From: Chloroflexota bacterium | GTDB lineage: Bacteria > Chloroflexota > Limnocylindria > Limnocylindrales > CSP1-4 | NCBI GenBank assembly: GCA_027364875.1 | Contig: DAHXON010000002.1 | Coordinates: forward strand, 25,192 to 89,191 | Direction: 5' to 3' | Length of the DNA stretch: 64,000 bases | Shown here: piece by piece, positions 23,697 to 60,220 of the stretch | How the letters are laid out: each line of letters starts with the position of its first letter | Position numbering within the stretch: position 1 is the first letter of the stretch | Notes under the pieces: model-generated | The model's database searches: none | What the model was told of the DNA's origin: nothing | What the model saw: only the letters and a program-made list of their open reading frames with translations | Program-made: the position numbers and the translations under genes

Positions 23697-23722
23697 TCCA
23701 AAGGTTCCGCGAAACGTTTAAC
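23697..23722. promoter_or_regulatory. 26-bp bipartite LacI-type operator, site a
   Basis: tccaaaggttccgcgaaacgtttaac. Lies 17 nt upstream of the lpdA ATG and 153 nt upstream of the first CoA-transferase gene. Confidence 0.6.
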
Positions 23723-23874
23723 ATGATACCCTGTTCACTGCTCGGCCCGCAGGTTGCAGGCTGGAAGGGAGTCTCGAGTGACGTGGTGCGGGGTCTGCGT
23801 CTCGGCGTAGCGCCACCCCCGCGGACACGGAGCCATGGCGGCTACACCACCGAGTGCTAGGAGAGACAGAGGCG

Positions 23875-25065
23875 ATGGGAGCCCCACTCGAAGGGATCAG
23901 GGTCCTGGATGTCAGCCGGGTTCTGGCTGGCCCGTTCTGCTCGATGCTGCTCGGAGACATGGGAGCCGACGTCGTCAAGGTCGAGCGCATTGGGCGCGGC
24001 GACGACAGCCGATCCGTCGGCGAGAAGGTGGGCGGCGAGAGCACCTACTTCATGGTGATGAACCGGAACAAGCGCGGGGTCACCGTCGACTTCCGGAACC
24101 CTGAAGGGATTGAGTTGCTCAAGCGCCTCGCCTGCGAGGCTGACGTCCTGGTCGAGAACTTCCGAGCCGGCACGTTGGAGGAGATGGGTCTTGGCTGGGA
24201 GACCCTCCACAAGCTCAACCCGCGCCTGATCCTGGCCAGCATATCGGGCTTCGGGCAGAGCGGACCCTACGTGGACTACGCCGCATTCGACATGATCATC
24301 CAGGCCATGAGCGGCATGATGGACATGACCGGCGAGCCGGATCGTCCTCCGGTCACCACCGGCACGTTCCTCGTCGACTACGCCACGGGCCTGTACACCG
24401 CGTTCGGCATCCTGGGTGCCCTCCGCGCCCGAGATCAGACCGGTCAGGGGCAGCGCGTCGACATGGCCCTGCTCGACACGGCCTTCTCGTTCCTCGTCAC
24501 GGCCATCCCGGATTGGCTGCTGCTGCACAAGAAGATGGCGCGGCGTGGCAATCGCGACCGATACTGCGCACCCACGAACCTCTTCACCTCGAAGGATGGA
24601 CGGTACGTGTTCGTCGCGGCGGCGACAGACGGGCTGTTCCCTCGCCTGGCCAGAGTGATCGGGCGCGAGGATATGCTCACCGACCCGCGCTACTCCACGA
24701 ACGTGGAGCGGATGAAGCGGATCGAGGAGACCGAGAAGATCCTTGGCGATTGGGTTGCCGAGCGGACCGCGGATGAAGTCATCGAACTCGTCCGGGCCGC
24801 CGGGCTGCCGTGTGCCAAGGTCGCCACGATAGACGAGGTCGTCGAGGATCCCCAGCTGAAGCACCGCGAGATGTTGGTAGAGATCGACCACCCCGCCGCG
24901 GGCAAGTTCCCGATGCACGGCCTGAACGTCCACTTCTCGGACACGAAGGAAGAAATTCGAAGGCCGGCACCCCTTCTCGGCCAGCACAACAAGGAGATCT
25001 ACGGCGAGTGGTTGGGGATGACAGATGAGGAGCTCGCTCGGCTCAGGGGGAAGGGCGTGATCTGA
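23875..25065 (+). CDS. family III CoA-transferase (CaiB/BaiF-like), copy 1
   Basis: ORF 23854..25065. An AGGAG about 12 nt upstream favours ATG 23875. GIRVLDVSRVLAGPFCSMLLGDMGADVVKVERIGRGDDSR, NRNKRGVTVD. Ends LRGKGVI*. Confidence 0.9.
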   Translation: MGAPLEGIRVLDVSRVLAGPFCSMLLGDMGADVVKVERIGRGDDSRSVGEKVGGESTYFMVMNRNKRGVTVDFRNPEGIELLKRLACEADVLVENFRAGTLEEMGLGWETLHKLNPRLILASISGFGQSGPYVDYAAFDMIIQAMSGMMDMTGEPDRPPVTTGTFLVDYATGLYTAFGILGALRARDQTGQGQRVDMALLDTAFSFLVTAIPDWLLLHKKMARRGNRDRYCAPTNLFTSKDGRYVFVAAATDGLFPRLARVIGREDMLTDPRYSTNVERMKRIEETEKILGDWVAERTADEVIELVRAAGLPCAKVATIDEVVEDPQLKHREMLVEIDHPAAGKFPMHGLNVHFSDTKEEIRRPAPLLGQHNKEIYGEWLGMTDEELARLRGKGVI

Positions 25066-25141
25066 TCGTCGCATCCAGCCCGCGCCGCAGGGCTCGGGCC
25101 GCCAGCTGCTCCACGCGAAAACAGACGAGAGGCAGAGGAAC

Positions 25142-26023
25142 ATGAAGTCCAAGCTCGTATCCATGGCTGAGGCCGCCGCCCTGGTCCCGTCGGGAAGCTC
25201 GATCGCGATAGGCGGAAGCATCATCCGCCGCTCCCCGGTCGCCCTGATCCGGGAACTGATCCGGCAGGGCAAGAAGGACTTCACCGTCCTTGCCTATCCG
25301 GCCGGGTTCACCACGGACATGCTCGCCGGGGCCGGCGCCCTCAAGCGCGTCGAGGCCGTCTACGAGGGGCTCTTCCAGTTCGGGCAGTCGTACAACTTCC
25401 GCCGCGGCGTCGAGGCCGGGGTCATCGACATCCGCGACTTCAGCGAAGTCGCGATGGCCGCGCGGTTCCGTGCCGCAGCGTCGGGCCTCCCCTTCATGCC
25501 GACCGACGCGCTGCTGGGCACGGGGATGGCCGCGAACAATCCCGAACAGATCCGCGAGATCACCTGCCCGTTCACTGGTCGCAGGTTGCACGCGGTGGAG
25601 CCGGCCAACCCGGATTTCACGCTTCTGCACGGCTACATCGGCGACGAATACGGCAACGTCCAATTCCCCCTCGTCCGCGACGCGGACGACCTGGACCCCG
25701 TGTTCGCCAAGGGAGCAAAGCGGCTGATCGTGACCGTCGAGAAGATCGTGCCGCACTCCGAGATCCTGAAGAACCCAAACCTCACCTACATACCCCACGT
25801 GTGGGTCGAGGCGATCGTCGAAGCCCCCTTCGGCGCCCACCCGCTGAGCTGCGACGGGTACTACGACGAGGACGAAGAGCACATGTACTACTACCAGGCT
25901 TGCTCCAAGCCCGGGAATTTCGCGGAGTACGCGGACAGGTACATCTACGGCACCAAGGACCACTGGGACTACCTGGCCAAGGCCCTCACCCCCGAGCGCA
26001 TCTTTGCGCTCTCCGCCCGATAG
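25142..26023 (+). CDS. family I CoA-transferase subunit A (glutaconate CoA-transferase GctA-like), copy 1
   Basis: ORF 25142..26023. AEAAALVPSGSSIAIGG, PDFTLLHGYIGDEYGNV, VEAPFGAHP. Confidence 0.85.
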   Translation: MKSKLVSMAEAAALVPSGSSIAIGGSIIRRSPVALIRELIRQGKKDFTVLAYPAGFTTDMLAGAGALKRVEAVYEGLFQFGQSYNFRRGVEAGVIDIRDFSEVAMAARFRAAASGLPFMPTDALLGTGMAANNPEQIREITCPFTGRRLHAVEPANPDFTLLHGYIGDEYGNVQFPLVRDADDLDPVFAKGAKRLIVTVEKIVPHSEILKNPNLTYIPHVWVEAIVEAPFGAHPLSCDGYYDEDEEHMYYYQACSKPGNFAEYADRYIYGTKDHWDYLAKALTPERIFALSAR

Positions 26024-26034
26024 GAGGCCGAACG

Positions 26035-58755: not shown

Positions 58756-59939
58756 TTCGCGATCTCGCTCGCGACATCTTCGAGGCGTGACTTGACAGCG
58801 GCCAGGAACCTGACGGCCGTGGAGCCATCGACCACCCTGTGGTCGTAGCTCAGGCAGAGGTACATGACCTTGCCGGGCACGACCTGGCCCTCTCTTATGA
58901 CCGGCACGTCGGCCACGCGGCCCACTCCCAGGATGGCGACCTCGGGCACGTTGATGATCGGAGTGAAGAAGAGGGAGCCGAACGTGCCGGAGTTCGTCAG
59001 GGTGAACGAGGCACCGGACACGTCTTCCGGCTTGATCTTGCCCTGTCTAGCCTGATTAGCGAGGCGATCGATCTCAGCCTCGATCCCGACGAGGGTCCTG
59101 GTGCCGGCGTCGCGGACGACGACCACCACCAGACCCGAGTCGAGAGCCACCGCCACGCCGAGACTGACAGTGCGATGACGGAGAATCTGATCATCGACGA
59201 AGGTCGCGTTGATGTCGGGGAACTCGGGCAACGTGCGCGCCACAGCCCAGGCGACGTACGTCGTGTACGACAGGTGCGACTCCCGGCGAGCGTTCGCGAC
59301 GACGCTCATGTCGACGTCGATCACGGTCGTGACGTCAGCCGCTGTCCTTCGGCTGAGCGACATCCGATCCGCGATTCGCCGACGGATCCCTTCGAGCGGG
59401 ACGACCTCCACGTCATCATGCTTCGAGAGCGAGCCGACAGCATTACGGTCGGCGTAGGCCCTGACGTCCGCCTCGCCGATGAGGCCGCCCTGTCCGCTGC
59501 CGCGTACCTGACCGATGTCGATGCCCAGCTCCCTGGCGACACGCCGGGCGACCGGAGAAGCGGGGTCACGGCCGGCCACATTGGCGATGGGCGGATTCGA
59601 GTCGGACAACTGATGCGAAGCGGCAGGAGAGGTGCTGGATGCGCTTGCCGAAGCAGGATCGGGCTGGGCGGAGGCGCCGGTCGGCACGCCGACATCCTCT
59701 CCCTCGGCACCGATGACCGCCAGCGGGGCGCCGATCATCGCATCCGTTCCGACCGGCACGAGGATCCGGATCAGGACACCGGCCTCGGTCGCCTCCACGT
59801 CCATGTTGGCCTTGTCCGTTTCAACGGTCAGGACCGGCTCGCCAGGCTCGACGCGATCGCCTTCCTTCTTGAGCCATTCGACGACCCTGCCCGACTCCAT
59901 GTCCTGCGACAGGCGCGGCATGGTGAGTTCAGTGGCCAA
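58752..59939 (-). CDS. dihydrolipoamide acyltransferase (E2) with a single lipoyl domain
   Basis: Within ORF 58752..60122. Start is TTG 59939 (LATELTMPRLSQDMESG) or ATG 59921. Lipoyl motif VETDKANMDVEA, E3-binding PVARRVARELGIDI, catalytic DHRVVDG. Confidence 0.9.
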   Translation of the reverse strand: MATELTMPRLSQDMESGRVVEWLKKEGDRVEPGEPVLTVETDKANMDVEATEAGVLIRILVPVGTDAMIGAPLAVIGAEGEDVGVPTGASAQPDPASASASSTSPAASHQLSDSNPPIANVAGRDPASPVARRVARELGIDIGQVRGSGQGGLIGEADVRAYADRNAVGSLSKHDDVEVVPLEGIRRRIADRMSLSRRTAADVTTVIDVDMSVVANARRESHLSYTTYVAWAVARTLPEFPDINATFVDDQILRHRTVSLGVAVALDSGLVVVVVRDAGTRTLVGIEAEIDRLANQARQGKIKPEDVSGASFTLTNSGTFGSLFFTPIINVPEVAILGVGRVADVPVIREGQVVPGKVMYLCLSYDHRVVDGSTAVRFLAAVKSRLEDVASEIAK

Positions 59940-59951
59940 CGGAGCCCTCCG

Positions 59952-59977
59952 GTGTAACCATTCGCGAAACGTTTCGG
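59952..59977. promoter_or_regulatory. 26-bp bipartite LacI-type operator, site h
   Basis: gtgtaaccattcgcgaaacgtttcgg. Lies 13 nt upstream of the TTG start of E2. Confidence 0.6.
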
Positions 59978-60194
59978 CCAGTATAGACCAGACGTCAACG
60001 AGGCGAGTGAGGTTTCGACAGGAAACCGCCCGAGACCACGTAGCCGGGCAGCTCAGGGCACCGTCCGCCCGGCACGCGATCCTGTCCCTGCCGGATATCG
60101 GCAGCGGCCAGCCGCGACACACCTGCGTCCGGCTGTCGCGCGGAGGACCCTGGCGGACGCGCCTCCGGGCGAATCCATCCGATCAAAGCCACCT

Positions 60195-60220
60195 CCCAAA
60201 GGTTTCGCGAAACGGTTAAC
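60195..60220. promoter_or_regulatory. 26-bp bipartite LacI-type operator, site i
   Basis: cccaaaggtttcgcgaaacggttaac. Lies 163 nt upstream of the second gctA-like gene. The surrounding 40 bp are 34/40 identical to site a. Confidence 0.6.

Follow-up and report, generated by a model that had tools for sequence, protein, structure and literature searches.

Nine overlapping double operators and a proposed LacI-family repressor in a predicted catabolic regulon of a Chloroflexota bacterium

Introduction

In E. coli, PurR recognizes the operator ACGCAAACGTTTGCGT, known from PurR-purF operator structures; its sites are single boxes and it responds to a corepressor rather than an inducer. Genes such as iolB, iolC, iolG-like and aldolase genes, which form a large catabolic cluster, are controlled in Bacillus and Corynebacterium by IolR, a regulator of the DeoR or GntR family, and a pathway intermediate relieves the repression. 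Cra (FruR; consensus GCTGAAACGTTTCAGC), a global regulator of central carbon flux, has the operator O1 TGAAACGTTTCA in E. coli (PMC4050194), and a Cra operator is also given in PMC10760178. Here we describe a 64-kb window (the whole stretch of DNA that was analyzed, with 67% G+C, from contig DAHXON010000002.1 of the Chloroflexota assembly GCA_027364875.1) that carries nine copies of a 26-bp element built from two overlapping Cra-like boxes. These copies are most likely the operators through which the LacI-family protein encoded at 53916-54995 would repress one regulon.

Overlapping operators have a precedent in this family. Ravcheev et al. (2014; PMC4052901) reported that the distance between LacI-family sites peaks at 13 bp and that 110 operons are preceded by overlapping sites. 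Some orthologous groups keep this arrangement, which also functions at gntKU with E. coli GntR. The authors found it difficult to square with the known structures and suggested a special binding mode. The overlapping tandem boxes, which an initial sequence-only reading of this DNA had considered unusual, therefore represent a documented, recurrent arrangement. As in that class, the boxes of the window overlap within the base-contact zone, their centres fall within the 12-13 bp of the class and the arrangement is conserved within an orthologous group. Whereas the class described in 2014 has a spacing of about 13 bp and is seen at some operons only, the arrangement in the window is obligate across the whole regulon, the spacing is strictly 12 bp and the pair is polar, with the strong box at the putative -10 hexamer and the weak box often without a central CpG.

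Comparison with individual regulators gives a similar picture. The CpG-centred GAAAC/GTTTC core of the Cra operator is identical to that of the strong box in the window, and both proteins are dimeric LacI/GalR repressors with a sugar-binding core and a recognition helix of the same type. However, the window regulator is not a Cra orthologue and would act locally on a 40-kb catabolic cluster, and while the two separate fruB operators are described as bound cooperatively by Cra (PMC4050194), every site in the window is an overlapping double box. PurR, which is among the closest solved structures, shares the AAACGTTT core and the hinge-helix leucine with the window, but its TVSH helix and GCAAAC half-site are shared with paralogues of the window regulator and not with this regulator itself, which has a helix of the Cra type, and whose half-site is GAAAC with G(C/T) before it. 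Compared with IolR regulons, both the regulator family and the operator differ; the cluster in the window lacks iolD and iolA among the genes identified, and adds fucI, a transketolase, an E1/E2/E3 complex, lipA and CoA-transferases. The regulon prediction is sound but fairly ordinary, and does not represent a new kind of regulatory system.

The 26-bp element and its distribution

A position weight matrix (PWM) was built from the nine 26-mers and used to scan both strands of the window. The nine 26-mers, all of which were exact at the coordinates given by the sequence-only reading, scored 28-38 bits (15-29 bits in leave-one-out scoring), and no other match was found on either strand of the window, where the best unrelated position scored 5.9 bits. 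The core GCGAAACGTTTC, allowing at most one mismatch, occurred 12 times, always within the sites; the number expected from shuffled sequences was 0.18 and none of 100 shuffles reached 12 occurrences. Gene starts were re-derived by combining codon-position G+C with hits in Pfam and NCBIfam and by inspecting ribosome-binding sites (RBS) and start codons. With these starts, all nine sites are located in non-coding DNA, as had been proposed, even though non-coding DNA represents only 8.1% of positions 21428-63746 (P ~1.5e-10). Within the window, the motif does not occur at a similar density in coding DNA, since no match was found outside the nine intergenic sites.

Each site comprises a strong, CpG-centred 14-bp palindrome and a weaker copy of it, with centres exactly 12 bp apart and 2 bp shared. 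This architecture, proposed earlier from inspection, was confirmed with a PWM of the right box and an offset scan: the 12 unshared left-hand bases of each site ranked among the top 0.01-0.3% of window 12-mers, and a second box was found at offset -12 only (offsets -30 to +30 examined). The consensus of the strong box is GCGAAACGTTTCGC; the exact palindrome reported at 46981-46994 is indeed a perfect copy of this Cra-like box, and seven other sites have strong boxes with at most two mismatches. As an even palindrome with a central CG, the strong box falls within the 14-22 bp given for LacI/GalR operators (PMC4052901), and the assignment of the element to this operator shape holds, including the core that it shares with the E. 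coli Cra operator. By comparison, the weak box lacks the central CpG in five of the nine window sites. The 12-bp spacing was strict in all 24 sites examined (window and orthologues), and no lone strong box was found in the window or in the related loci L081-L088; in the window and in the orthologues, the partner is always exactly 12 bp away.

Two details of the sequence-only reading of the sites had to be revised. All nine copies had been described as having the same orientation, which fails because the fifth site reads better in the inverted register (46981-47006, minus strand; GTGGAACCATTAGCGAAACGTTTCGC), where it scores 31.6 bits compared to 28.5 bits for the register starting at 46969; the latter has a poor left box and was dropped. 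The shared orientation of the other sites can be attributed to the fact that most operons are on the minus strand and that two of the sites are duplicates. The sites had also been placed 13-364 nt upstream of transcription units. The distance of 13 nt belongs to E2, and the second CoA-transferase operon starts near 60413 and not at 60221, about 190 nt from its site. The coordinates of the sites, the transcription units and the regulator gene are summarized in Table 1.

Table 1. Predicted operators, the transcription units they would control and the gene of the proposed repressor (window coordinates; distances are to the start codons given)
Feature	Coordinates	Strand	Description
Operator 1	23697..23722		Weak box 23697-23710, strong box 23709-23722; PWM score 35.5 bits; 16 nt from lpdA (ATG 23680, minus) and 152 nt from CoA-transferase operon a (ATG 23875, plus); orthologous sites L081:4835, L084:4884, L087:3470, L088:4531
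Operator 2	28224..28249		Both boxes CpG-centred; 0-15 nt 5' of EamA exporter (ATG 28250 or 28265, plus)
Operator 3	35621..35646		363 nt 5' of ABC solute-binding protein gene (ATG 35257, minus); TTGACA-N7-TACACT immediately upstream of strong box
Operator 4	42791..42816		Between transketolase (GTG 42620, minus; 170 nt) and second EamA gene (plus; start ~42827)
Operator 5	46981..47006		Strong box 46981-46994, weak box 46993-47006; inverted relative to the other eight; 112 nt 5' of epimerase gene (ATG 46868, minus); near-identical site L081:18637
Operator 6	50121..50146		Most degenerate copy; 39 nt 5' of fucI (ATG 50081, minus); weak counterpart L081:14762, between fucI and GFO
Operator 7	51320..51345		Best-scoring copy; 55 nt 5' of lipA (ATG 51264, minus); -10-like hexamer TAAGAT at 51356-51351 (minus)
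Operator 8	59952..59977		12 nt 5' of E2 start (TTG 59939, minus); abuts RBS GGAGGG; invariant TATACT at 59985-59980 (minus), 2 nt upstream of the 26-mer and 4 nt before GAAAC
Operator 9	60195..60220		~190 nt 5' of CoA-transferase operon b (start ~60413, plus)
lpdA-TSUP unit	21428..23680	minus	lpdA (dihydrolipoyl dehydrogenase) and TauE/TSUP; Pfam; lpdA above NCBIfam TIGR01350 cut-off
CoA-transferase operon a and EamA	23875..29242	plus	Family III, family I A/B and family III CoA-transferases, then EamA exporter
ABC importer unit	29256..35257	minus	ABC importer, MR_MLE dehydratase, DHDPS-type aldolase, SDR
Transketolase unit	35875..42620	minus	Transketolase, iolC-type kinase, alpha/beta hydrolase, ROK kinase, GFO/IolG-like dehydrogenase, AP_endonuc_2 isomerase (frameshifted)
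Epimerase unit	43920..46868	minus	Epimerase, Cgl0159-like aldolase, iolB
fucI unit	47034..50081	minus	fucI and GFO oxidoreductase
lipA	50257..51264	minus	lipA
E2 unit	52946..59939	minus	E2, E1alpha, E1beta, FGGY kinase, probably reading through into LacI-cyclase
CoA-transferase operon b	60413..63746	plus	Paralogous CoA-transferase operon
LacI-family regulator gene	53916..54995	minus	Proposed repressor; 3' of E2-E1alpha-E1beta-FGGY kinase

The LacI-family regulator and its conservation in related loci

The protein encoded at 53916-54995 was confirmed by Pfam and related searches of the window proteins as the sole LacI-family regulator in the window, and no other transcription factor, including TetR, GntR and IclR types, was found there. 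It has a LacI helix-turn-helix (HTH) domain (PF00356) and a Peripla_BP domain (PF13377/PF00532), and aligns over its full length to the homologues RbsR, CcpA and PurR in the PDB. The leucine of the hinge helix is kept (L54 does not vary in alignment A3, and the segment AVARAL aligns to AVARSL of PurR). The recognition helix in the regulator and in all its orthologues is GVSISTASYVVTG (STASYVV), the same type as that of Cra, GVSRTTASYVING (TTASYVI; PDB 8jff). No curated LacI-family NCBIfam equivalog was reached; in particular, a score of 137 bits against the Cra/FruR equivalog NF008452, with a cut-off of 385, places the protein outside the Cra/FruR orthologous group. The stop codon of the regulator gene overlaps the start of a gene for a PF04199 'cyclase'.

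A scan of GTDB representative genomes with the regulator identified only paralogues with at most 42% identity, and no motif was found in those 80 loci. Orthologues (63-89% identity) were obtained from a protein database and are located on contigs of metagenomes or metagenome-assembled genomes (MAGs), which provided seven genomic contexts (L081-L085, L087 and L088). These seven loci keep the gene order [lpdA]-E2-E1alpha-E1beta-FGGY-LacI-cyclase with divergent CoA-transferases, and the regulator is syntenic with the motif in all seven. The motif is also kept upstream of the orthologous operons in these relatives. The double box is located upstream of E2 in all six orthologous loci that hold E2 and upstream of the CoA-transferase/lpdA divergon, and it is found directly upstream of the regulator gene in L083 and probably also in L085, in a divergon of the regulator and AP_endonuc_2 genes.

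Alignment of the region upstream of E2 from seven loci yielded a clean phylogenetic footprint. The flanks cannot be aligned, and the conserved elements are TTGAC, TATACT and GAAACGTTTCGCGAAtGGtT with the RBS and the start codon; in particular, TATACT, a 3-nt spacer, GAAACGTTTCGCGAA, most of the weak box (tGGtT.CAC), the RBS and the start are invariant or nearly so. The weak box, with its non-CpG centre TGG, is kept in six of seven loci despite the diverged flanks, and is under selection.

Paralogous regulators with 47-52% identity, which are located in unrelated sugar-utilization loci (GH32 and/or GH172 genes are present in three of these four), read an STVSHV helix, like the TTVSHVI of PurR (PDB 1jft). 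Their boxes are doubled copies of GCAAACGTTTCG immediately 5' of their own genes (L086:2125-2150, L091:414-443, L090:1422-1450 and L089:9955-9980), with a spacing of 13 bp in L086 and L091 and of 12 bp in L089 and L090. The STASY helix therefore pairs with the GAAAC half-site and the STVSH helix with the GCAAAC half-site. In the L086 and L091 loci, TTGACA is located 17-18 nt before a -10-like hexamer (GATAGT and CAACAT, respectively). A paralogue of the regulator comes from a Chloroflexota MAG.

Because helix and half-site co-vary in this manner, because synteny of regulator and motif is strict and because the hinge leucine is kept, the 53916-54995 protein is most likely the one that binds the nine 26-mers, as predicted by the sequence-only reading; the orthologous sites are consistent with this assignment. 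The ROK protein encoded in the cluster was also considered as a regulator and rejected, as its ROK domain fills the protein of about 330 aa, which has no HTH, and as the L085 orthologue is of kinase size (336 aa). A C-terminal H-R-x-S-C-G-C motif is conserved in the regulator, its orthologues and most paralogues (A3), while the tail after it is not conserved; this motif could possibly represent a metal or redox site, or a dimer-dimer contact.

Promoter geometry and proposed mechanism

A TAnnnT hexamer is located 0-7 nt upstream of the strong box, read towards the gene, in roughly 15 of the 24 window and orthologue sites. Putative -10 elements of this kind include TATACT at E2, TAAGAT at lipA, TATCAT at lpdA and TACACT at the solute-binding protein gene. 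In the promoters of the CoA-transferase operons, TAACAT is made up of the final bases of the box, which explains why the strong box ends in TTAAC and not in TTTCAC at these sites. At E2, the 26-mer fills the gap between the putative -10 and the RBS. In addition, TTGAC was found only 7-8 nt upstream of TAnnnT in three places in the window, compared to 0.41 expected, all of them at motif sites (59980-59998, minus; 35654-35672, minus; 50135-50153, plus), and also at L081:18600-18640; the short-spaced TTGAC is kept in six of seven E2 promoters (relatives L081, L082, L084, L087 and L088). A -35/-10 pair would need a much longer spacing, and the combination TTGAC-N17-19-TAnnnT does not occur anywhere in the window.

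From this geometry we infer how binding could lead to repression. The strong box would abut or overlap the putative -10 hexamer or transcription start region of each promoter, and a bound dimer would place its two HTH heads in adjacent major grooves and its hinge helices at the central CpG, thereby blocking RNA polymerase. A sugar-derived effector would release the repressor, resulting in the joint induction of about ten transcription units (approximately 34 genes, 21.4-63.7 kb). The induced set would include the iol-type genes, fucI with kinase and transketolase, the sugar-acid enzymes, the lipoate-dependent E1/E2/E3 complex with lipA, the CoA-transferases and the transporters. As no operator is found in the 125-nt gap before the LacI gene, the regulator probably controls its own expression through transcripts that read through from the E2 promoter. 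With regard to stoichiometry, the strong box would be the primary site and the weak box an overlapping auxiliary register, which may be occupied alternately or by one head of a second dimer.

Alternative explanations

The occupancy of the two boxes could also be of a different kind. Both could be occupied together by two dimers in a non-canonical complex, for example with the inner heads disengaged, as a three-head complex or on locally unwound or kinked DNA, so that the 26-mer and not the 14-mer would be the functional unit; we regard this as a possibility to be taken seriously, albeit the less likely one. It would account for the fact that every strong box in the window and in the orthologues is partnered at exactly 12 bp and that the E2 weak box, including its TGG centre, persists where the flanks have diverged; moreover, the paralogues keep double boxes too, and the preference for about 13 bp at 110 operons, the function at gntKU and the special mode suggested by Ravcheev et al. 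(PMC4052901) point in the same direction. However, 12 bp correspond to about 41 Angstrom and 51 degrees, and as judged from B-DNA geometry and PurR/LacI-DNA structures, the inner heads of two canonical dimers would come to lie in the same major-groove segment. No tetramerization helix is visible, the C-terminal tail is unconserved except for HRxSCGC, and the CpG that insertion of the hinge helix requires is missing from five weak boxes.

The remaining alternatives concern the identity or the nature of the element. The motif could be bound by another transcription factor encoded outside the window, either a LacI paralogue with a Cra-like helix or a member of another family that binds long palindromes as paired dimers, with the local LacI gene being a mere neighbour. 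The window represents only 64 kb of the genome, LacI paralogues are numerous in the lineage and an additional LacI gene or an IclR gene is present in some related loci, but these extra genes are not syntenic with the motif while the local regulator is (7/7 loci); together with the sites directly 5' of the regulator gene in L083, the co-variation of helix type and box type between orthologues and paralogues and the lack of TetR, GntR and IclR genes in the window, this makes an outside factor improbable. A role of the palindromes in RNA, as hairpins in the 5' untranslated region that attenuate transcription or mask the RBS, would fit the probable location of the element within the first 30 transcribed nt beside the RBS at E2, lipA and lpdA. 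Nevertheless, such a role is very hard to credit: the folding energies of all nine elements equal those of shuffled sequences (z -1.5 to +1.3), deviations in the weak box have no compensation in the strong box, both orientations occur, the CoA-transferase sites overlap the -10 instead of following it and there is no Rfam match. Hairpin and riboswitch functions were dropped on the folding scores and the lack of compensation and of an Rfam match. Likewise, the copies are intergenic and palindromic, and those at 23697 and 60195 share about 45 nt of flank, as might be seen for dispersed repeats without regulatory role that resemble repetitive extragenic palindromes (REP) or miniature inverted-repeat transposable elements (MITE). 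Yet all copies are upstream of operons and none is between convergent genes, apart from one duplicated promoter the flanks show no relationship to each other, the positions are maintained in orthologous loci while the surrounding DNA diverged and the PWM had zero matches in 80 unrelated genomic loci; position, flanks and conservation led to the rejection of this explanation, which we consider extremely improbable.

Several observations weigh against repression of the whole set by the 53916-54995 protein as proposed here. Operator 3 is remote from its gene (363 nt). On grounds of geometry and according to PMC4052901, centres 12 bp apart are too close for two canonical LacI-type dimers, and because of this and the five of nine weak boxes without CpG, half of each element is not accounted for. 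The promoter model is incomplete, as there is no canonical sigma70 -35/-10 pair at the E2 promoter and the conserved TTGAC is only 7-8 nt from TATACT. The motif was found near none of 70 lipA relatives (L092-L161, 67-86% identity, from a metagenome scan with LipA). Finally, the analysis covers 64 kb of the genome, and a second LacI paralogue with the same helix may be encoded elsewhere.

Genes of the regulon and its surroundings

The gene names given by the sequence-only reading were largely right, and transketolase, iolC, iolB, fucI and lpdA pass NCBIfam equivalog cut-offs. The divergent layout of lpdA-TSUP and the first CoA-transferase operon was also recognized correctly, but the strands had been swapped: the minus strand carries lpdA-TauE, the plus strand the CoA-transferase operon. 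As its conserved core, the regulon has E1alpha, E1beta and E2 (and in part lpdA) with the FGGY kinase, LacI and the PF04199 'cyclase'; CoA-transferases of families III and I and an SDR gene are divergent from these (52946-59939 and 21428-28172 in the window; L081-L088); in L081, L082, L084, L087 and L088 the E2-E1alpha-E1beta order is kept together with FGGY-LacI-cyclase. The cluster contains two EamA exporters and two paralogous CoA-transferase operons. Operon a is the true orthologue of the E2-adjacent operon in relatives (72-87% identity) and operon b is a paralogue (37-46% identity). About 45 nt are common to operators 1 and 9, among them the overlapping, divergent hexamers TAACAT and TATCAT; duplication of the CoA-transferase operon therefore also included its promoter.

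Control of cofactor genes by a sugar-type repressor had been considered unusual. For lpdA and E2 this is not the case: judged from their gene context, both belong to an E1/E2/E3 complex dedicated to the pathway, whose genes share a single operon with the regulator gene in relatives, and control by the pathway repressor would therefore be expected. In L087, lpdA is located in front of E2, between E2 and the CoA-transferases, and L088 keeps only a 68-aa lpdA fragment at this place. In the window, lipA is on its own within the sugar cluster, 3' of the best-scoring operator and with good promoter geometry, whereas its relatives are mostly located just downstream of an E2 gene, often with lpdA further upstream. 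Because none of the 70 lipA relatives carries the motif, the link between operator and lipA may be confined to this genome, or else it occurs in relatives that were not sampled. Among the named relatives of LipA, the closest (81% identity) is from a Candidatus Limnocylindrales MAG; with the Chloroflexota paralogue of the regulator, this makes a Limnocylindria-like Chloroflexota bacterium the probable source of the window.

With regard to the pathway, iolB and iolC are present in the cluster together with genes for an IolJ-like aldolase and IolG-like proteins, as well as fucI and a transketolase, and this gene set suggests a catabolic route that has not been described previously.

Further observations concern individual genes and the edges of the cluster. 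The AP_endonuc_2 gene (xylose-isomerase-like/IolE-like; 35875-36736, minus) has a frameshift near 36255-36302, and its two halves align in different frames to one 279-aa orthologue; the split could reflect either a pseudogene or a sequencing error. The 617-nt gap at 35258-35874, between the isomerase gene and the solute-binding protein gene, is unusually long and holds operator 3; in L083 the equivalent of this operator is about 95 nt from the solute-binding protein gene. An rve-type integrase/transposase gene (19787-20986, plus) near the left edge of the regulon, beside TauE-lpdA, is in line with the rearrangement of lpdA seen in comparison with the related loci. Positions 1-12700 of the window encode a pyridoxal phosphate enzyme, two carbamoyltransferase-like proteins, a molybdopterin oxidoreductase and an amidohydrolase. 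This region looks like a cluster for the catabolism of nitrogen heterocycles; it holds no copy of the motif and has no link to the regulon.

Significance

Beyond the ordinary regulon proposed above, the data allow for a bolder proposal, which we consider speculative and on balance unlikely. The polar 12-bp pair would be the footprint of a distinct LacI-family binding mode, such as two dimers on distorted DNA or a three-head complex, perhaps aided by the clade-specific HRxSCGC motif. Separately, the regulon may encode an undescribed route of Limnocylindria-like Chloroflexota that combines a FucI-type isomerase, an FGGY kinase and a transketolase with a lipoate-dependent E1/E2/E3 complex and CoA-transferases. 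If the binding mode were indeed distinct, a regulon with at least 24 natural variants of the site would be a good system in which to study the overlapping-site arrangement noted in 2014.

For the organism, the prediction provides a well-supported map of the regulon: it covers a large catabolic cluster without annotation, from an uncultured lineage of soil and freshwater, places approximately 34 genes on one signal and flags the E1/E2/E3 complex, lipA and the CoA-transferases as members of the pathway. For the family, the locus provides a clean, obligate example of overlapping LacI-family operators, in which the stoichiometry of binding represents a small question in repressor-DNA recognition.

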